DNA from: an uncultured archaeon
GTDB lineage: Archaea; Asgardarchaeota; Thorarchaeia; Thorarchaeales; Thorarchaeaceae
Assembly (NCBI GenBank): GCA_964473825.1
Contig: CAYYQL010000001.1
Coordinates: forward strand, 96,001 to 160,000
Length of the DNA stretch: 64,000 bases
Reading direction: 5' to 3'
Program-made: the position numbers and the translations under genes
In this document: positions 44,527 through 56,217 of the stretch, piece by piece
Position numbering within the stretch: the stretch's first letter is position 1
Layout: the number at the start of each line of letters is the position of its first letter
Notes under the pieces: model-generated
The model's database searches: none
Told to the model about the DNA's origin: nothing
Seen by the model: the letters and a program-made list of their open reading frames with translations, nothing else

Positions 44527-45483
44527 CTAATGGGAAGCAGTGGCAGTTTCTGCCTCTTCGCGTGCCTTGAGGCGGTTCATCTTCTCTAACACACGGCGTA
44601 TATGATCAGTCATGTGACTCGGAACCGTCACTCGATAATCGGAAGGCAAGTCTTCTAAGACATGAAGAATCTTCTCAAGAGTAATCCTCTTCATAGTCCT
44701 ACATACTGCAGTCGGCTTTGCAGCCATGATTATCTTGTCAGGATGATCAGCCTGAAGCTGCTCTACTAAGCCTAACTCAGTGGCTATGATGAACTTTCGG
44801 GCTGAAGACTCAGCAACAACCTGAACCATTTTCCCCGTCGAACCAACAATATCCGATACGTCTTGAACCTCCGGAGGACATTCCGGATGGGCAATAGCAA
44901 TAGCATCAGGATGCTCGTCCTTCAGTCGAGTGATATCGTCTGGCACGAATTGGAGGTGAACATAGCAGCTCCCGCGAGGTTCTATGTCTACAATTTCACA
45001 GTCAGTCTGCCTCCGAACATACTCAGCTAGATTCCTGTCTGGACCGAAGAGAACCTGTGAAGCACCAAGAGATTCGATGACCTCGACGGCATTGCTGGAA
45101 GTGCATATGACGTCACATTCGGCCTTGGTCTCTGCAGTCGTGTTGACATAGACTACTACTGGAGCATCAGGATACTCTCTCCGTCGTGAACGAATCTTCT
45201 CAGGATGGATCCAAGCAGCCAAGGGGCAAAGAGCATCTGAATCCGGGATGTAGACCGGGATGTCCGTCAAGACAGCCGACATTTCTGCCATAAATCGTAC
45301 CCCTGCAAAGATGACCATATCAAAGCCCTCAATCTCTGATGATTTCCTAGCGAGCTGCAGTGAATCACCAACGAAATCTGCTATCTGTTGCACTTCAAGC
45401 GTTTGATAATTGTGAGCTAGGATGAGTGCATTACGCTTTGCTTTCATTTCGACAATGCGTTTCTGAAGTTCGTTGAGTTTCAT
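44527..45483 (-). CDS. nadA: Quinolinate synthase
   Basis: LAHNYQ, GDSLQL, GVRFMAE, CPLA, YVNT, CTSSNA, CYVH, AHPEC and CRTMK, including the three Fe-S cysteines. Confidence 0.95.
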   Translation of the reverse strand: MKLNELQKRIVEMKAKRNALILAHNYQTLEVQQIADFVGDSLQLARKSSEIEGFDMVIFAGVRFMAEMSAVLTDIPVYIPDSDALCPLAAWIHPEKIRSRRREYPDAPVVVYVNTTAETKAECDVICTSSNAVEVIESLGASQVLFGPDRNLAEYVRRQTDCEIVDIEPRGSCYVHLQFVPDDITRLKDEHPDAIAIAHPECPPEVQDVSDIVGSTGKMVQVVAESSARKFIIATELGLVEQLQADHPDKIIMAAKPTAVCRTMKRITLEKILHVLEDLPSDYRVTVPSHMTDHIRRVLEKMNRLKAREEAETATASH

Positions 45484-45692: not shown

Positions 45693-46742
45693 TTGATTTC
45701 CGGGAATGAGTCAAGCATGATTCAGGACGCCAAGTCAGTCCTGTACCTGTTGAATCAGGAGGGGGCCGACGTCATTCTGGAATATGCGCTGGCAGAAGCC
45801 TTAGGTTCGTCGGGTACACAGCTTGATGAGATAGATGCGGATATCCTGGCTATCGTTGGCTCTGACCGAACAGTCCTTAACACGCTACTGAAGATGGGCG
45901 ACTCCCCAATCCCGATTCTGCCCATTTCTTCGCGAGGGCAGCCAGACTTCTTCTTTGACGTTACAACAGGCAATTTCGAACTTGCCGTCGAAGACTTGAT
46001 TGCTGGCGAGTGGACTGAAGATCATCGTTCTCGGCTTTCAATCACTGTTGGCGATAGGGTATTTCCATCCGTACTCAATGAGGTGGCCATCTTCGCGAAA
46101 CGTAATGCTACACTGATTAGGTATTCACTGAATCTCGATGGAGAGGAATTCTGGAAAGACGGTAGTGACGGCCTTATCATAGCCACTCCTACCGGGAGTA
46201 CAGCCTACTCCTTGAGTACAGGTGGTCCCATAGTGCTATCTCCTGCCTCTGTTCTCTCTGTGATACCGGTGAACAGCACAAATCCAGCAAGAAGACCACT
46301 TATTGTATCAGACAATGTAGTAGTCGAGATTCGCAACCTGACCAGCCCGGTCATGGTAGAGGCTATACTAGATGGGCAGCTGAGGCATAACGTGAACTCT
46401 GGCCCGATCATTGCTAGAAGAGCAGATAGCGATGCAATATTCGTGAAACTTACTGAAGAGAGAATTGCCGCTCTACGCGGCAAGCTGCAAAAGAAAACAG
46501 ACATCCTTGAGGATCTTGCTCAAGATCTACCTCCCAGTGCGAAGCTCGTACTCAAAGTGCTGGAATACCATGAAAAACTGACAGCCAGACAGATTACAGA
46601 GGAAACCATGCTATCTGCGAGAACAGTAAGACATGCTCTCTCCATCCTGATGGCTGAAGGACTGGTCAAGAAGCACCTGTCACTCCGCGACAGCAGACGA
46701 GGACTATTTATGGCTGTCAAGCCAATCGAGCGCCAATCCTAG
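45693..46742 (+). CDS. NAD(+) kinase-like protein fused to a C-terminal winged HTH
   Basis: VLNEV, DGLIIATPTGSTAYSLSTGGP and LDGQ are present; the GGDG motif reads GSDR. C-terminus LPPSAKLVLKVLE...TARQITEETMLSARTVRHALSILMAEGLV is a wHTH. Confidence 0.85.
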   Translation: MISGNESSMIQDAKSVLYLLNQEGADVILEYALAEALGSSGTQLDEIDADILAIVGSDRTVLNTLLKMGDSPIPILPISSRGQPDFFFDVTTGNFELAVEDLIAGEWTEDHRSRLSITVGDRVFPSVLNEVAIFAKRNATLIRYSLNLDGEEFWKDGSDGLIIATPTGSTAYSLSTGGPIVLSPASVLSVIPVNSTNPARRPLIVSDNVVVEIRNLTSPVMVEAILDGQLRHNVNSGPIIARRADSDAIFVKLTEERIAALRGKLQKKTDILEDLAQDLPPSAKLVLKVLEYHEKLTARQITEETMLSARTVRHALSILMAEGLVKKHLSLRDSRRGLFMAVKPIERQS

Positions 46743-48894: not shown

Positions 48895-50868
48895 CTAAGC
48901 CACAATCTCAAGAACGCCAGAAAGCACAAGCTTGGTCGCGACGAACTTCATAGCGTTGTAGCTTACACCGACCTTCTTCACGACATCTTCCAGAGGTGTT
49001 TCGCCATCACAGTAATCCACGAATTTGACTACTGCAGTGCCATAAGCCTTGACTGTGTTAGGATCAGGATTCTTAACTTTCCTAGGAATGCTCTGTGGCC
49101 CGAGATCAACTTGGAAGCTGATCCATCCAAAGTGCTCCATGATCTGCAGCGCTCCAGTGACGTTCTCCCGGGGAAGGTCTAGGCTCCTAATCAAGCCTCC
49201 AATAGTTTCGGTTCCTTCTATTGCACTCTTGACCTCCACAATAGAACGTCCCACCTCTCTACTGTCGAATGATAGGGGACGACCAGCCTCACGGGCGCGG
49301 ACTACATAGTCGAAGCTAATGGGGCTCATTGGTATCTTCTGTAGAAGTGAAAAGACGGTGGGTTCAAAGATGGTCACATCGCCATCCCAGGTCTCCCAAG
49401 TTCCTTGATACGCTTCTTCGAACTCGAAGAGCAGAGAGGACATAATCTTTCGATACTTCTCCTCTTCACTGTCATTGGTGACTGTCACACCTAACAAGAA
49501 ATGGTCAGACTTCTCGACCATGACCAGGTTTCCTTCGTGCTCGATTCTCTTCAGGGCGTCGCTCTTATCGGCTATACCGCTGGGATCACCGTCGATTCCG
49601 CCGAAGGAATCAAGAGCTGAGATCAGAGATGTGATTGCGGTGGCGTCCACTTCCTCGTTGGCGTAGTTGAGCTCGTAGCAGGTATGGAACGTCCCGCCGT
49701 CTTGAACGATCATAATCACATGGAGAACCCGCGCCTGCTCAGCAATCTTGTCAGGAATCTCAACAACCGTATCAGATTCGGACTCGATATTGACGGGGTA
49801 GTCGATTGCCGAGTCCCCACTTACTCCGCCCGCTCTCAAGTCACCCGAGGGTGCGCTCTCTCCAGTATTCTGAGCTTCGACCCACTCCCCTGTCTCACCA
49901 GATGTGGCACCTGTAGCACTCCGAATATCACCAGGTCGTGGAGGTAACTCAGCCTCCTTGTCCTTTCTGTGAACAGTGATCATCTCACTCAGAGGCCTGT
50001 CGGGCAACTCAACTCCCACTGTCTTTGTAGCCACTTCCAGCATCAATCGAATGAATTCGTCCCTCCGAGTCTTGTCCGTTGCAACCATTGGGAACGTAGG
50101 AGCACCCAAGAGCCGCTGAATCTTCTCAGCTCGCATGGACTCTGGGAGGTCCTGCTTGTTTGCAATGATAAAGAGGGGAACCGCAGGAGCTTCCTTCCGA
50201 ATGGTTCGTAGCAGGCTCTTGGTCTGCATCACATTCCGGAAACTGCTGTCCGTAATCAGAAAGATGACGTCTGTTCCTGAGAAGTAGAAGGCCCAAAGAT
50301 CTTGAAATACCGCCTGCCCGGCGAAGTCCCATAAAGTTACCAGAAAAGTGCCGAATTGTATCGTTTCTGAGGAGTCTACGGCCACGTTGATGGTGGGAAC
50401 ATAGCCGCCAGGTGCTGGTTCCTTACCAAACAATAGTCTGAGCAATGTGCTCTTCCCAACACCACCGGAGCCAACAAAAGATACCTTGAACCTTGTGAAG
50501 ACCAGCTCATCTAGAATATCATCCAGATTGTCTTTCACATACCCTATGCTGTTGCCTCTCAGTGCAGTAGATATCCGGGCAGCCCCTTCTCGGGCCTTTC
50601 GGATAATTGTTCGATCCTCATCTCTGCCATCGGTAACAAGCATGAGCTGAATATCATCATCAACAAGAGAGTGGAATACCTTATGCTCACCGACATAGAC
50701 TGGCGTGTCTGGAGAGAGACCCTCAGTGTCCATGAGGTCCGAATACCCACTCATGAAATCATGTATATCATCATCAGTGAATTCTATCTTCCAGAATCTG
50801 ACCCTAGTGACGACCTCTCCAGTCGCCTTCTCGATGAGTATAACGTTGTGAATCAGATTGCAGCACAC
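48895..50868 (-). CDS. Longin - Arf-like small GTPase - longin - 2x wHTH fusion protein
   Basis: G1 GSGGVGKS, G2 YVPTI, G3 WDFAGQ, LWAFYF and G4 IANKQDLP; flanking longin patterns; IEGTETI and CDGETPL wHTH motifs. Confidence 0.88.
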   Translation of the reverse strand: MCCNLIHNVILIEKATGEVVTRVRFWKIEFTDDDIHDFMSGYSDLMDTEGLSPDTPVYVGEHKVFHSLVDDDIQLMLVTDGRDEDRTIIRKAREGAARISTALRGNSIGYVKDNLDDILDELVFTRFKVSFVGSGGVGKSTLLRLLFGKEPAPGGYVPTINVAVDSSETIQFGTFLVTLWDFAGQAVFQDLWAFYFSGTDVIFLITDSSFRNVMQTKSLLRTIRKEAPAVPLFIIANKQDLPESMRAEKIQRLLGAPTFPMVATDKTRRDEFIRLMLEVATKTVGVELPDRPLSEMITVHRKDKEAELPPRPGDIRSATGATSGETGEWVEAQNTGESAPSGDLRAGGVSGDSAIDYPVNIESESDTVVEIPDKIAEQARVLHVIMIVQDGGTFHTCYELNYANEEVDATAITSLISALDSFGGIDGDPSGIADKSDALKRIEHEGNLVMVEKSDHFLLGVTVTNDSEEEKYRKIMSSLLFEFEEAYQGTWETWDGDVTIFEPTVFSLLQKIPMSPISFDYVVRAREAGRPLSFDSREVGRSIVEVKSAIEGTETIGGLIRSLDLPRENVTGALQIMEHFGWISFQVDLGPQSIPRKVKNPDPNTVKAYGTAVVKFVDYCDGETPLEDVVKKVGVSYNAMKFVATKLVLSGVLEIVA

Positions 50869-50965
50869 TCCAGCAGAGCCCGTTTGTTTTATGTGAGATG
50901 ATGTTTTCCTTCAGGACGTGTAGTTAAATCAACCTCTATGAACCTTTGGTGGGGATACTGAGAGT

Positions 50966-52690
50966 CTATTTGAACGCAACCATACCCCGTTTATGAAGGT
51001 CTCTCAGCACATGAAGCACGACCCCAACATCGATTCCTGTCACTCCAGAGATGGCCTTTATTGTCTTGGCTCCGTCCACAGCCCTCAGGATACGCTCAAG
51101 GTCTGCATAGAGCTTGAGTACCTCAGGATCGGGGGGACTCGACATTTGAGGGATGTCCTCGGAAGTGATGAGTAAGTCAAAGCCTATGGAATCAAGCGCT
51201 TTGAGCAAGTGAATGGCACCCAAGCTCATCTTCGGACCCGCACCTTGCACAATTGTTTCGATAGTCAACGAACCATCAACCGTGTTCCAGACAGCCATCA
51301 GAAAGTCACGTACGAGCTCTGACTTGAACCGGTCCCAATCGGGAGCAGAAAGACGGTATGGAGCCATTCGATTCGAGAGTGTTTCGGGAGGGAGAGTGGC
51401 GAGAAGTTTGAGAGTAAAGGGTGGAGAGGCATAGAGGTCATCTCCTGCGGCAACCTCTTCGGGCTGCTCGTCTGCGTACAAATCTGGCAGAAACGAAAAG
51501 GTCTGTCTGAGCTCGTCCACATCACCCCTGTTGCCTGTTATCAGAGTAAAGATGAGGTCACCCCGTTCTATCATGATGTAGGTGAGATTCCCTGCTTTGA
51601 ACACCTCAGTCTTCATCTGCTGCATGGATTCCACATTGAACATGGACAAGGCCGCTACAATGTTTGGGGCGCGTGACAGAACGGTTGACTTTGATTCGTA
51701 GTAGTATGTATAGACTGCGTCACCCAAGTTCTTGTCAACAACGAAGAAGGCTTGGTGCCCGAGGACTTTCTCCTCACTAAGAACTCGGTCTTGTTCATCC
51801 TTCTCGAATAACTCGGTCCTCCATCGTTTCATTGCAAGCTCGGGATGCATGTCCGTGAGGCCACTCATTGCCAGTGTGGACAGAACCAGATGAGTTGAAT
51901 CGCCAGATGAAGCATCAGATAGCACAAGATCAAGTTCATACTCAAGGTTTCGAGCCAATTCCAAACACTCTTCGTGGCCGGGTACGATGACTATTTCATC
52001 GCTATGTACTTCTCTGACCCTTGATACAACGGAACGAATCTCGTCTGTTTCTGCCTCAGAATTAACGACAATGGTGTATACATTGCAGGACTGCATCTCT
52101 GAGGGCAGACCTTGGGAAGCAGCGGCATCAAGATCAATCTGGCAGAATCTCACACCTAAGGGACCGAACGAAAACGGCGATGTGAAGAAAGAACCGTTCT
52201 TCTTCTTTTGTTCGACGATTCGACTGACCGCGAGTCCAGTTCGGTTCCCCGGAAGAGGTTTCGAGGGACTGATGAAGCATACTCTGACTTCCTTTTGGAG
52301 AATGTCGGATGCCATGGAGGGAAAGCTGTCCTTCTCTTCGAGGGCTGAAGACGACGCTATCAAATCCTGAATTGCGGTTCTGAGCTTCTTGAAACTGGAC
52401 ATCTCTTCAGCATCACACTGCTCTCCCTCGATGACACAGAGCAACGCAGTCCGCTCATCCAGACGGCCAACCAGACACTTGAAGTCTACTGCACTGATTG
52501 TGGTACATTCTGCGTCGGGTTCACGCTCAACAACATCATAGACCCTCTCCATAATCAAGCCAAATCTCGTCTTCACTATACTCTCGTTCTCGAAGCTCAT
52601 CTCTGACAGGATTTTCGAGCCTATGAGGTCTATAAGATACGCAGAACGTATCACTGGATTGATTCTCCTTATTGGGGCAACGACGGCCAT
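50966..52690 (-). CDS. Longin - degenerate GTPase-like - longin - 2x wHTH protein
   Basis: Same domain order as the downstream gene. The GTPase strands are recognisable (VRVCFIS, FCQID, NVYTIVVNS, IVIVP) but GKS, DxxG and NKxD are absent. VDGSLTI and VDGAKTI wHTH motifs. Confidence 0.7.
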   Translation of the reverse strand: MAVVAPIRRINPVIRSAYLIDLIGSKILSEMSFENESIVKTRFGLIMERVYDVVEREPDAECTTISAVDFKCLVGRLDERTALLCVIEGEQCDAEEMSSFKKLRTAIQDLIASSSALEEKDSFPSMASDILQKEVRVCFISPSKPLPGNRTGLAVSRIVEQKKKNGSFFTSPFSFGPLGVRFCQIDLDAAASQGLPSEMQSCNVYTIVVNSEAETDEIRSVVSRVREVHSDEIVIVPGHEECLELARNLEYELDLVLSDASSGDSTHLVLSTLAMSGLTDMHPELAMKRWRTELFEKDEQDRVLSEEKVLGHQAFFVVDKNLGDAVYTYYYESKSTVLSRAPNIVAALSMFNVESMQQMKTEVFKAGNLTYIMIERGDLIFTLITGNRGDVDELRQTFSFLPDLYADEQPEEVAAGDDLYASPPFTLKLLATLPPETLSNRMAPYRLSAPDWDRFKSELVRDFLMAVWNTVDGSLTIETIVQGAGPKMSLGAIHLLKALDSIGFDLLITSEDIPQMSSPPDPEVLKLYADLERILRAVDGAKTIKAISGVTGIDVGVVLHVLRDLHKRGMVAFK

Positions 52691-52729
52691 TGTGAAATAG
52701 TTATGTGCTATAAATCATGTCCAATGCTC

Positions 52730-54040
52730 TTACAAGGTTCTGGGGTCTTGCACTTGCGGGTCTGCTCGTCGCTTGAGAAAGTCACTGACATCTGTGATGC
52801 CTCTCATCGCTTTCTGATATTCATACTCTGGATCAGATATCGAATTCCCAGAGGCTTCATAGACCTCGCCGGTCTCCAAAGGAGGGAGATCAGAAATCGC
52901 CTCTTTGACCGAAACGGGCTTGGGCAGACCAGGCGGGTCATAGACGGGTTCCGATCGGTTAGTGCCAACTTTTACCGCTGAGAACAGGGATATCGGTCTT
53001 GCTGGTGGCTCACCTTCCGTAGAACCTACAATGAAGACGCGCCTTCTCCTCTGAGGTACGCCGAATTGTTCAGCCTTCAGAATGAACCAGTCTACCGCAT
53101 AACCCAGCATCTCAGTCCTCTCAATCAACCCTCTGAGGATTCCGCCCTTTCCAATCCATGAGAGGCCCGTCACATTCTCAATAACAAAGTAGTCTGGTGA
53201 CAAGTCTTCAATTGCTCTAACCATTATGCCGATGAGATTGTTGCGATTGTCTGACACACTCCACTTCCCGGCGGTTGAGAATCCTTGACAAGGTGGACCT
53301 CCCACCAACAAACTGGGCCTCTCCGTTCCCAGAGTCTCATCTATAGTAGACATCAATGCCGCATATTCGCTAGGGACAGACAGATCGGCCTGTATGGTCT
53401 TCACATTGGGATGATTGAATGAGTATGCTTCACACATCGCCTTCTCCACATCAGAGGCAAGAGCAATCTCATGTCCTGCGAGCTGAAGGCCACATGACAG
53501 GCCTCCCGCTCCAGAGAACAGGTCCACAGCTGTTCCCGGAGGGATTGTCATGCCAACAGCTCGTGCAAGCAGAGGTGGTACTGCGTTGCCGACCTGCTTG
53601 TACTGGGAACTTGCTGAGCCCAGAAACCTGTAGTCATCGAAGAAGGACTGGAGCCTAGCTGCCTCTCGAACCGAAATCATGCGGTCTTGCTCAGGGTGGG
53701 CAAAGCTACCATTTCCAGGACGATGGAAGTATGTGCTGACGGTGTAGCTTGGGAGGTCATTTCTCAAACGGCCATAATATGTGGTACGACCACCGGACCT
53801 TCGGATTTGCATGATTCTCTTGGACTTCTTGGCAATAGTGAGGGGGATGTCGTCCCAGTTGCCGCCAGGCGGCACCGACTTGATGATTTCTATGTCGAGT
53901 TCACTGAGAGAAGGAGCCACATGATTATAGAGAACAGCTCTAGTCTCATCCGTGGTTTCAAGTCCCAAGTCGATGGTCATCAGGTACACCAAGTCCAGAG
54001 TGGAATTCTCTGTCACACTGAAAAATGTACTGCGTGACAT
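52730..54040 (-). CDS. Circularly permuted DNA (cytosine-5) methyltransferase (Alw26I/Eco31I/Esp3I-like)
   Basis: TRD plus motifs IX (SVREAARLQSF) and X (QVGNAVPP) precede I (DLFSGAGG), IV (GGPPCQGFS), VI (ENV) and VIII (QRRRR). Confidence 0.9.
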   Translation of the reverse strand: MSRSTFFSVTENSTLDLVYLMTIDLGLETTDETRAVLYNHVAPSLSELDIEIIKSVPPGGNWDDIPLTIAKKSKRIMQIRRSGGRTTYYGRLRNDLPSYTVSTYFHRPGNGSFAHPEQDRMISVREAARLQSFFDDYRFLGSASSQYKQVGNAVPPLLARAVGMTIPPGTAVDLFSGAGGLSCGLQLAGHEIALASDVEKAMCEAYSFNHPNVKTIQADLSVPSEYAALMSTIDETLGTERPSLLVGGPPCQGFSTAGKWSVSDNRNNLIGIMVRAIEDLSPDYFVIENVTGLSWIGKGGILRGLIERTEMLGYAVDWFILKAEQFGVPQRRRRVFIVGSTEGEPPARPISLFSAVKVGTNRSEPVYDPPGLPKPVSVKEAISDLPPLETGEVYEASGNSISDPEYEYQKAMRGITDVSDFLKRRADPQVQDPRTL

Positions 54041-56217
54041 TACATGGCTTCATCCATTCTTACCACGATATCTTCAACTTCCTTCTCCTCTGCGGCAAGG
54101 TGAGATAGAACGATCCGGGCCTGTTCAGAAGATATCTTATAGAGTTGAAAGACATGGCCTTCCAATCTATAACTACAAGCCGTGTTTCCATTCAACATGG
54201 CTCCGACATCTTTCACAATCGCATCATAGAGATTCTCCTCTTTTGCTGTTAGATCAAAAGGAGGTGGAATCGGTAGGTGCCCCAATTCCCTATTGGAAAC
54301 ATGATTGTTGGTATTCGTAATGGCAAACCGCCAGTTCAGGAGTGAAGAGTTCAGAAGGCCCAAAAGGTAGAGAAGGAGAAACCCACGCTCCTGGGACGTA
54401 AGAGTCAGATAGTTGCAGGAGTTTGCCAACACTACATGAGGTTCTACGAGCGCGAATTTCAATCTCCAGCGTTGTTTGCGATTCGAGACCTGCTGACAAG
54501 CGATGCGTTCGCGCTCTGAATGAGCAATCCGCTCTGAGGTGCTATGCTTCTCTCTGAAAGCATCATAATCCACAAAGTCCTCTATCTCAATACTCGAGGT
54601 ATGAGCGAATCTTCTGATGTGTGACCCTCTGAGCAGCGGAGGCTTATCAGGATCTGCACTTATCAGATTCTTGTCCAGAGTGAGGTCAAGCTCCCCCCTA
54701 CATATTCGTACCCAGTCATGCCTGTTCAAGCTTGCTTGCTTGTGCATAATGTCAAGTATCTGCCAATCCTGTGAGTTCAATCGTGGAATGATATACTCAC
54801 TTCCTGAAAGGTTTTCTATCCTTTGAACAGAGATATTCTCAAGACGTGGCTTCGAACGGGAATGCAGATGCTGAAGACCGAAAGCAGCAGGGATGATACC
54901 GCTGGGTCTTCCCTTCTTCACACTCATAATACATAGAGCCTGTGTCACATTGGGGAAAAGCGAAGAGCCTTCTTGGTATTCTTCAAGGCGATAGATGGAG
55001 TGCTTGGTGAGAATCTCTTCTCTCAAAGCTGCAGCAGAGAGGTCTCCGAGAACCGATGCAGGAACGATGAAACCCAGTCGAGCATCACTTCTTGAGATAC
55101 GAAGTGCTCGCTCAATGAACAGCCTGTGAGTGTCTAATGTGTACTTGTTTGCAAGGGTGTACTCACCAGAGTTCCTGAAGTACCCGACTCTTTCCTTCAA
55201 CTCAGTCTTGTATGCCTCAAACCCTTCCATATCGACTTCGCGTTCGCCCTGAGAAAGACGCTCTCTGATGTACTCAGCACGGCTTGGATGGAGTCTGTCA
55301 TATGGAGGATTCATCACCACGAAGCGGAATCCGCCTTGGTCTAGAATCTCGCACTCGAAACGTTCGTTCCAATTAAGCTCATTTATCGATGGGGCAGATA
55401 GATACTCCTTTGGAGCACATGACTGCCCCCTAAGAGAGCCAATCAAAGAATCACCTTGAATTATGTGTCCACTAGGTATCCGCTTCTCCAGTCCAAGCTC
55501 TGTCAACCTGTGGTTCAGTACTCTATGCGCAACCTCCACACTAGCCCCATCAAGGTCAACTCCATAGAAACCGTCAAGAAACCAGGACAGATACTGTCCG
55601 TAGTCAGTCTTGTCACATGACCGCTTAAGCCGGCTGGACATATAGTCAACTGCGGAAAGAAGGAACGCCCCTGGGCCGCAGGCCGGGTCGATTAATGTGA
55701 ACTCATCAGCAGCGCGCTCCCAAGCAGAAGAGCTCTCCTGGAGGATTCTCTCTTCCAGCCAAGGTCCAAGAGTGATTCCAACGATATGTTGAGCTACAGG
55801 CATAGGTGTGAAGTAGCTTCCAAGAATGCGCCGTCGTTTCTGAACCGTAGAAGCGCTGACGGGTCTAAAGGCCCCTATTGAATGAACTTTAAGCATAAGG
55901 CTGGTAGGACTATAGCATGGAGAATGCCCAAGTTCTTCCATCAAGCTGCTACCGCAGAACTCCTCCAGCAGTTGCCGGACATCGTCGATAATACGCGGCT
56001 GATCGAGTCCTGATCTCTCTCCAAGGAATGTAAGCCTTCGAAAGAACAACTCATCATCCGCATTGTTGTTGCGGCGATAAAGCCAGTTGAGTGCAGCCAG
56101 ACGTGTGCATTCCATGACATGGCGCTGGGAGTGCTCAGAAGCGATTCCGAGACGGTCTGCGATCTGCCTTGTCTCGTCTACTATTCTCAGAGCAACATTG
56201 CCATCAAGGGCACTCAT
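54040..56217 (-). CDS. N6-adenine DNA methyltransferase (Alw26I/Eco31I/Esp3I-like)
   Basis: GSYFTP, DPACGPGAF and MNPPY; C-terminal RIACQQVSN...LANSCNY...LNSSLLNWRF. Its stop overlaps the m5C MTase start (TAATG). Confidence 0.88.
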   Translation of the reverse strand: MSALDGNVALRIVDETRQIADRLGIASEHSQRHVMECTRLAALNWLYRRNNNADDELFFRRLTFLGERSGLDQPRIIDDVRQLLEEFCGSSLMEELGHSPCYSPTSLMLKVHSIGAFRPVSASTVQKRRRILGSYFTPMPVAQHIVGITLGPWLEERILQESSSAWERAADEFTLIDPACGPGAFLLSAVDYMSSRLKRSCDKTDYGQYLSWFLDGFYGVDLDGASVEVAHRVLNHRLTELGLEKRIPSGHIIQGDSLIGSLRGQSCAPKEYLSAPSINELNWNERFECEILDQGGFRFVVMNPPYDRLHPSRAEYIRERLSQGEREVDMEGFEAYKTELKERVGYFRNSGEYTLANKYTLDTHRLFIERALRISRSDARLGFIVPASVLGDLSAAALREEILTKHSIYRLEEYQEGSSLFPNVTQALCIMSVKKGRPSGIIPAAFGLQHLHSRSKPRLENISVQRIENLSGSEYIIPRLNSQDWQILDIMHKQASLNRHDWVRICRGELDLTLDKNLISADPDKPPLLRGSHIRRFAHTSSIEIEDFVDYDAFREKHSTSERIAHSERERIACQQVSNRKQRWRLKFALVEPHVVLANSCNYLTLTSQERGFLLLYLLGLLNSSLLNWRFAITNTNNHVSNRELGHLPIPPPFDLTAKEENLYDAIVKDVGAMLNGNTACSYRLEGHVFQLYKISSEQARIVLSHLAAEEKEVEDIVVRMDEAM

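Follow-up and report, generated by a model that had tools for sequence, protein, structure and literature searches.

A small GTPase and its pseudo-GTPase paralog encoded in tandem in one Thorarchaeal family

We analyzed a stretch of 64,000 nucleotides from an uncultured archaeon of the Thorarchaeaceae (assembly GCA_964473825.1, contig CAYYQL010000001.1, positions 96,001 to 160,000; hereafter the window, whose own numbering is used throughout), and focus here on two neighbouring minus-strand genes that encode related multidomain proteins. The gene lying upstream in the sense of transcription encodes a pseudo-GTPase paralog (50966-52690, 574 aa from the ATG at 52690; hereafter the partner). The downstream gene encodes a multidomain small GTPase predicted to be active (48895-50868, 657 aa from the GTG at 50868), as assigned from its open reading frame (ORF), Pfam matches and orthologs. 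From the TAG stop of the partner (50966-50968) to the GTG start of the GTPase (50868) the gap is 97 bp, so that both ORFs lie in the orientation and at the distance that an original prediction, made from the letters alone, had given for them.

The starts of the two genes deserve a comment. The start proposed by the ORF finder for the GTPase, GTG 50868, overlaps a GGAG at 50868-50871, and the start of the orthologs (M-I-H-N) corresponds to a CTG at 50856 here, with GGAG 11 nt upstream as elsewhere. For the partner, the true start is likely the GTG at 52654, giving 562 aa, and not the annotated ATG at 52690; position 1 of the partner family profile maps to 52654, ortholog N-termini begin there too, and a GGAG at 52665-52668 lies 10 nt ahead of this GTG. 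The 97-bp spacer (50869-50965, minus strand) contains a conserved element, AAAGGTTCATAGAGG (50933-50947; AAAG-TTCATAG), just past the partner stop, which could be a candidate transcription factor B recognition element and TATA box (BRE/TATA) forming the GTPase gene's own promoter. Motifs resembling aaaG-TTCATAg are present in most of 12 aligned orthologous spacers, in which GGAG or GGTG precedes the GTPase start by 11-12 nt. A TATA-like sequence, ATTTATAG, also lies upstream of the partner gene (52708-52715, minus strand).

Domain architecture of the two proteins

The GTPase begins with a longin domain and a connecting helix (residues 5-124; 50497-50856, minus strand), delimited on its AlphaFold2 model (predicted local distance difference test, pLDDT, 68.4) and by superposition with VIA-align. 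Residues 5-126 align with the delta-COP longin (5mu7_B) at Z 12.5 over 114 residues (root-mean-square deviation, rmsd, 2.5), and the domain matches the VAMP7 longin at Z 11.3. An intact G domain follows (residues 125-290; 49999-50496), recognized by Pfam, by its motifs and by its fold. All four motifs quoted in the original prediction are present in the 657-aa protein, namely GSGGVGKS (133-140), WDFAGQ (180-185), LWAFYF (191-196) and NKQDLP (237-242), and a G5-like motif reads ATDK. Pfam places residues 125-256 in Arf, Roc and Ras, with 63.5 bits and an expect value (E) of 2.3e-17 for Arf (cut-off 22.3), 57.4 bits for Roc (cut-off 27) and 47.7 bits for Ras (cut-off 21.6). Gtr1_RagA scores 21.3 bits, slightly below its cut-off of 22, and some orthologs carry a precomputed match to the Pfam family PF04670. 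By structure, residues 126-286 reach Z 12.5 to the Asgard protein LokiRagO (8yl2_A; tied best) and 12.4 to Rab23.

For each of the two proteins we built an alignment of 49 relatives, which was used for hhalign and for AlphaFold2. Across the 49 relatives of the GTPase, G1 (GSGGVGKST), G2 (T159), G3 (WDFAGQ) and G4 (NKQD) are invariant, and the identity of the G domain across genera (92%) points to strong constraint by several interaction surfaces. Having G1 to G4 and a family score above the cut-off, the downstream protein is classed as an Arf-like small GTPase of the Ras superfamily, and its motifs predict a working GTP switch. The N-terminal amphipathic helix of eukaryotic Arf proteins is absent; a 120-residue longin precedes the G domain instead.

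Behind the G domain, a linker (residues 296-375; 49744-49983) is modelled as disordered at pLDDT 22-30; with 17% identity across genera and a net charge of about -8, it is probably an acidic, poorly conserved and flexible segment. The second longin (residues 380-490; 49399-49731) was recognized by its β-β-α-β-β-β-α order and by VIA-align, in which residues 380-514 reach Z 11.2 to AP-3 sigma (9c5c_M), 10.9 to AP2 sigma and 10.7 to sedlin and TRAPP. The remainder (residues 491-657; 48898-49398) comprises a conserved connector and, judging from the order of its secondary structure elements in DSSP, two probable winged helices at about 537-600 and 601-657.

The partner was modelled with a pLDDT of 82.4. 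Its N-terminal longin (residues 13-120; 52331-52654, minus strand) was placed with VIA-align, in which residues 12-178 match longins at Z 11.5-13, namely 13.0 for the COPI zeta/sigma-type 9qpq_L, 12.2 for VAMP7 and 11.5 for chain 9o5a_H of a KICSTOR-GATOR1 entry, which we take to be NPRL2. The following pseudo-G domain (residues 130-281; 51848-52303) retains the fold and has lost G1, G3 and G4. It superposes on Rab28, Rab2A, Rheb and Rho/Rac/Cdc42 at Z 10.5-11.5 (135-149 residues aligned, rmsd 3.1-3.5, about 9% identity), which almost equals the score of the neighbour's genuine G domain (Z 11.7-12.6). A G-domain fold was thus found in the middle of this protein, one of the points on which the original prediction had offered to stand or fall. 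In the hhalign register and across the 49 relatives, the P-loop site is occupied by an E/D-rich loop with the consensus C-F-I-T-x-E-E-P-S-P-E-D, the G3 site holds no DxxG-like sequence, and the G4 site shows a conserved P-G-S-D instead of NKxD. The proposed loss of G1, G3 and G4 therefore extends to all 49 relatives and, because P-loop, DxxG and NKxD are replaced family-wide, we infer that the partner no longer binds nucleotide.

The 574-aa partner has no significant Pfam or NCBIfam match. Its second longin (residues 309-408; 51467-51766) was identified from the β-β-α-β-β-β-α order in DSSP and from its alignment to the second longin of the GTPase; Fuz_longin_1 matches residues 315-400 at E 0.011 in the whole protein and at E 6.3e-4 in the excised segment (20.4 bits, below the cut-off of 26.1). 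All four longins of the pair show the order β-β-α-β-β-β-α, three of them by superposition and the second one of the partner by DSSP, hhalign and the sub-cut-off Fuz_longin_1 match. The partner ends in a connector and two probable winged helices (residues 409-574; 50969-51466), delimited by invariant columns and DSSP, and the connector is its most conserved part, with many invariant residues at 395-468. The best Foldseek matches of the partner are two-domain Gtr2, RagA and RagC chains, LokiRagO, Mon1/Ccz1 and chains of GATOR1/SEA-complex entries (E 2.6e-6 to 1e-4).

The DSSP order of helices and strands (H-S-H-H-S-S) fits a winged helix in both models, making two C-terminal winged helices per protein probable. 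HTH_47 matches the GTPase tail at E 0.057, under the cut-off, and a stand-alone paralog of the tail at E 4.4e-9, and in shape partner residues 309-574 resemble a stand-alone Thorarchaeota cluster of 291 aa (TM-score 0.67). In fold searches with whole models, these small C-terminal domains were never among the top matches. The sequence search against solved structures returned nothing meaningful; its best matches, a designed Rossmann protein, CodY and LrpA, have E values of 0.08-0.9.

Paralogy, distribution and neighbourhood

BLASTP of the pair aligns the C-terminal halves only (20% identity, E 1e-5). Comparison of the two families with hhalign yields a single collinear alignment of 550 columns, spanning partner residues 11-573 and GTPase residues 3-652 (probability 97.8%, E 1e-12), and the profile of the partner family also picks up the first 128 residues of a GTPase ortholog (E 8e-6). 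The common five-part layout proposed earlier, with a longin, a G domain, a second longin and two probable winged helices, is accordingly real and beyond chance, and the end-to-end alignment and motif counts identify the pair as paralogs, one with an active and one with a pseudo G domain.

The five-domain protein appears to have arisen when a longin-Arf-like GTPase was fused to a longin-winged helix-winged helix (longin-wH-wH) module, and to have been duplicated whole later. A 601-aa paralog (G000:C11:22994-24799; L006 2994-4799, minus strand) corresponds to the longin-G half only, at 39% identity over residues 5-297. Three stand-alone proteins of about 280-300 aa in the archaeon's own genome, two of them in tandem, match GTPase residues 437-653. 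Other longin-GTPase or plain-GTPase genes are also present in this genome, which holds about 20 other small GTPases. Many of the family's genomes have stand-alone longin-wH-wH proteins in tandem pairs, which may themselves be heterodimers; the C-terminal half of the partner is nearer to that of the GTPase than to these stand-alone proteins. Two observations from outside the window may be added here: the C-terminal half of the 601-aa paralog is unrelated and apparently rich in acidic residues, and among the tandem paralogs of about 280 aa (G000:C1:315305-316872; L007 1785-3529, minus strand) one has a clear HTH_47 match.

Both genes are single-copy and each is found in 76 of the 87 genomes of the class, the GTPase orthologs at 57-69% identity. 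The partner is present in 71 of 79 genomes of one family-level clade, compared with none of 299 other Asgard genomes at E 1e-15. A search of 1.84 billion representative proteins gave its family only 48 matches at E ≤1e-3, the weakest being members of the GTPase family and stand-alone modules. In the sister family, a 96% complete genome (G001) encodes a GTPase ortholog with 45% identity beside the same beta-CASP gene; a 500-aa gene upstream of it, considered as a diverged partner, encodes a CUB-PPC-caspase protein and was rejected. These profile and genome comparisons place a tandem duplication of the five-domain protein in the ancestor of one Thorarchaeal family. The upstream copy afterwards retained the G fold but not its nucleotide-binding motifs, and its N-terminal half diverged rapidly. 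The duplication is thus lineage-specific by its distribution in sequenced genomes and not ancient, as had been supposed: the pseudo copy is confined to one family, and the sister family has the GTPase alone.

Conservation is unevenly spread over the partner. Its second longin and connector are as conserved as those of the GTPase (55-56% against 55-57% identity), and its first longin and pseudo-G domain are relaxed (22-30% identity). The alignment holds 53 invariant and many near-invariant columns, and the ORF is intact and single-copy at about 560-590 aa. Since an intact, single-copy partner with 53 invariant columns persists in 71 of 79 family genomes, it is, by this pattern, under selection.

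Comparison of gene coordinates showed that in about 60 of 76 genomes the partner immediately precedes the GTPase on the same strand, some 100 bp away; the remaining cases are mostly contig breaks, and the order persists down to 32-36% partner identity. We also searched 13 orthologous loci from at least 10 genera with the proteins of the window (tblastn) and found a conserved block of about 15 kb with genes on both strands (HAD-NadA-NADK_wH-betaCASP >< GTPase-pseudoG-C5MT-N6MT, where MT denotes methyltransferase). The pair is kept together in one genus in which both methyltransferases are lost (L009) and in another genome in which the C5 enzyme is lost (L010). Co-loss was rejected as evidence of coupling: the two genomes without both genes (G022, G025) also have no beta-CASP gene, which means that the entire block is either absent or not assembled there.

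Several neighbours of the pair were noted in their own right. Upstream lie a C5-type methyltransferase gene (52730-54040, minus strand) and an N6 methyltransferase gene of the Eco57I/TaqI_C type (54040-56217, minus strand), which have one base in common. The two proteins look like a split bifunctional enzyme for N6-methyladenine (m6A) and 5-methylcytosine (m5C), because both match a single 1036-aa type II model of PADLOC (PDLC03237), at positions 220-576 and 652-1015; no nuclease gene was seen beside them. They occupy the same place in most genera of the family, with identities of about 50% and 36%, and most of the 66 genomes with the C5 gene have it immediately ahead of the partner gene (39 bp from the annotated ATG here). 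A defence role of the pair itself was considered and rejected, as PADLOC returned no match for either protein and matched only the two upstream methyltransferases. On the other side, a gene at 45693-46742 (plus strand) encodes the C-terminal domain of an NAD kinase fused to a MarR/GntR-type winged helix, and nadA (44527-45483, minus strand) is divergent from it; these two genes stay paired in most of the family loci compared.

Heterodimer or independent paralogs

We lean, with modest confidence, towards a heterodimeric switch with a single GTP site as the best reading of this locus. The two proteins would pair side by side through their longins and through the conserved longin-connector-winged-helix halves, much as the Rag/Gtr GTPases and the longin pairs NPRL2-NPRL3 and Mon1-Ccz1 do, which would result in an asymmetric complex with a single GTP-binding site. 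Within it, the pseudo copy would be a fixed scaffold or would control the active copy's nucleotide state or output, and the near-neutral winged helices would dock other proteins and not DNA. Pairing is probably not obligatory in every lineage. We see a precedent for it in the stand-alone longin-wH-wH genes, which are often arranged as tandem pairs in this family's genomes.

To estimate whether such a complex is plausible, we used a prediction of GTPase residues 1-490 with partner residues 1-410, each with its own alignment; this construct holds both longins and both G-type domains and leaves the connector and winged helices outside. The pair scored 0.60 (0.60, 0.62 and 0.02 in the individual runs), compared with 0.32 for the best control, a margin of 0.28. 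The runs have at least 18% of contacts in common, with a partner pLDDT of at least 74, and the output names no interface. Of 80 solved complexes, 58 attain the mark applied to this score, as do 2 of 110 mismatched pairs. The heterodimer proposed in the original prediction therefore beat its controls, yet the result is graded as weak support, with one run nearly at zero.

Several points weigh against a heterodimer. Besides the single run at 0.02, only 7 of the 80 solved complexes scored 0.60 or less, as did both mismatches that passed, and a pass of this kind is more often wrong than right unless the prior likelihood is high. Dimers of Rag proteins and of longins have already been solved, and resemblance to these may account for the pass. 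The synteny expected by the original prediction is found, with adjacency in about 60 genomes, but it is weak evidence of coupling, because the whole block is conserved and the adjacency may simply be inherited order. In four genomes of one genus (G063, G064, G066 and G068) the pair is separated by 1.9-3.6 kb; the one locus that was inspected (G066; L003 2732-4312, minus strand) has an intervening 526-aa gene on the opposite strand with a weak hint of DUF7408. A promoter-like element of its own is apparent for each of the two genes. A search for sequencing runs that might show their expression listed DNA runs from microbial mats and sediments and none of RNA. Finally, no partner is detectable by profile in the single-contig genome G059 or anywhere in the sister-family genome G001, both of which have the GTPase, and an obligate heterodimer is therefore unlikely.

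These observations give some weight to a less probable, though still serious, explanation in which the paralogs no longer cooperate. The upstream copy would then be a separate scaffold, acting for instance as a homodimer or together with another small GTPase or one of the stand-alone longin-wH-wH proteins, and the genes would be neighbours only because the region is rarely rearranged. A block of at least 8 genes on both strands is indeed syntenic across the 13 loci compared, a gene of opposite orientation is tolerated within the pair in one genus, and each gene has a promoter-like motif and a Shine-Dalgarno sequence of its own. In G059 and G001 the GTPase persists without a partner, three stand-alone longin-wH-wH proteins and some 20 other small GTPases could be alternative partners, and the complex prediction is weak. 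Independence fits less well with the way in which about 60 genomes have kept the order, the strand and a spacing near 100 bp, including some that lost flanking genes, or with the fact that the best-conserved region of the partner, from the second longin to the connector, is likewise conserved in the GTPase. It also leaves aside that the complex prediction exceeded its controls by 0.28.

A further explanation, which we regard as improbable, is that the two proteins are GTP-gated DNA-binding regulators that act through their tandem winged helices, perhaps tied to the orphan m6A/m5C methyltransferases upstream. Each protein does end in two winged-helix-like domains, there are weak sequence matches to the winged helix-turn-helix (wHTH) domains of CodY, LrpA and TrmB (E 0.2-0.9), and the C5 methyltransferase gene directly upstream is conserved in the family. 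These E values are, however, far above the significance threshold, and the winged helices are neutral to acidic, unlike typical DNA-binding wHTH domains: their mean net charge is -0.1 to -3.1, the recognition helices carry 0 to +2, and the GTPase tail (residues 491-657) carries about 0 to -2. The pair is also retained where both methyltransferases or the C5 enzyme have been lost, and tandem winged helices are known to mediate protein-protein contacts in eukaryotic complexes such as ESCRT-II and NPRL2/3. That the upstream gene is a decaying duplicate without a function of its own is hardly credible, for although every GTP-binding motif is gone and the partner evolves faster than the GTPase (about 38% against 64% identity), it has an intact frame of constant length in most of about 70 carrier genomes, along with the 53 invariant columns, a confident fold (pLDDT 82) and single-copy presence in 71 of 79 family genomes noted above.

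Asgard archaea have many small GTPases and longin or roadblock proteins, hardly any of which have been examined with a partner, and this locus offers a defined pair that is conserved family-wide and has one subunit predicted to be catalytically dead. If the heterodimeric switch forms, it would be a compact system for asking how longins sense or impose a G domain's state, and would show how duplication followed by loss of function can give rise to asymmetric dimers of the Rag type, as well as what the winged helices recruit. If the two proteins do not bind each other, the locus still represents a clear case of a duplicated GTPase that became a pseudo-enzyme.

Comparison with known systems

Small GTPases that work with a Roadblock/LC7 regulator and an HTH-containing protein as one functional unit are known from MglA-MglB and the actinobacterial 'conservons'. 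Their components are separate proteins without a pseudo-GTPase, unlike this pair, and neither protein described here has a Pfam match to Roadblock/LC7 or DUF742. Pseudo-GTPases are known from eukaryotes, for example CENP-M and the pG domains of p190RhoGAP. Like the partner, the eukaryotic examples (reviewed in PMC10211241) keep the G fold and have lost the motifs, and their fold serves as a protein-interaction module; they differ from the partner in their unrelated sequence and context.

Paralogous longin-bearing partners, as found here, also make up NPRL2-NPRL3 (GATOR1), FLCN-FNIP, C9orf72-SMCR8 and Mon1-Ccz1. These longin heterodimers regulate small GTPases and have no G domain of their own, whereas both proteins of this pair have a G fold. 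Membership of the NPRL2/NPRL3 family was considered and rejected: neither protein matches Pfam NPR2 or NPR3 at E up to 1-5, and only the general longin fold is in common. A 'GP' motif is reported to characterize longins of GTPase-activating proteins (GAPs; PMC12290439); it is absent from the β1-β2 loops of the four longins here, which read ATGE, GSK, DGGT and NLGD.

Multidomain GTPases have been reported from Asgard archaea before. These reports describe longin-GTPase-roadblock fusions and an operon pair predicted to dimerize like Gtr1/Gtr2 in a Lokiarchaeon (Tran et al. 2024, PMC10933270), longin-GTPase fusions and a family with an NPRL2-like longin plus a C-terminal domain in most Thor genomes (Liu et al., 10.1101/2020.10.19.343400), and longin N-termini on some Asgard Arfs (Zhu et al., PMC11914678). 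A pseudo-GTPase partner or a tandem winged-helix tail does not appear in the portions of PMC10933270 and PMC11914678 available to us. Unlike the reported Rag-like and Arf-related multidomain GTPases of Asgard archaea, this pair is confined to one Thorarchaeal family. Our literature search turned up nothing on a pseudo-GTPase of archaea that is paired with its active paralog, nor on a winged-helix tail on such GTPases. The supposition that no system of this architecture had been described consequently needs narrowing: longin-GTPase fusions and operon heterodimers were already known, and what is new here, as far as the accessible parts of those sources go, is the active/pseudo pair with its winged-helix tail.

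A close comparison is with the Rag/Gtr GTPases (RagA/B-RagC/D and Gtr1-Gtr2), whose subunits are functionally asymmetric in their nucleotide states. Like the two proteins described here, they are paralogs in which a Ras-like G domain is followed by a domain of the longin/roadblock superfamily, which in the Rags serves for dimerization. A Foldseek search with the pseudo copy ranks them first, at E 2.6e-6 to 4e-5 and with about 310 columns aligned; an Asgard member, LokiRagO, has a crystal structure (PDB 8yl2). Both Rag subunits bind GTP, whereas one copy here is without G1, G3 and G4. Rags lack the N-terminal longin and the (here probable) winged helices of this pair, and the domain behind the G domain has the longin strand order here and not the roadblock order of the Rag type. 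It is a tentative idea, and one we ourselves rather doubt, that the locus encodes the first prokaryotic heterodimer of a GTPase and a pseudo-GTPase, an extreme Rag-like pair with a single nucleotide site in which each subunit carries an NPRL2/3-like longin-winged-helix module. If this were true, a switch, a built-in longin regulator and an output platform would be united in one two-gene unit, which would provide a simple model for how signalling of the Rag-Ragulator/GATOR type was assembled from longin and G domains.

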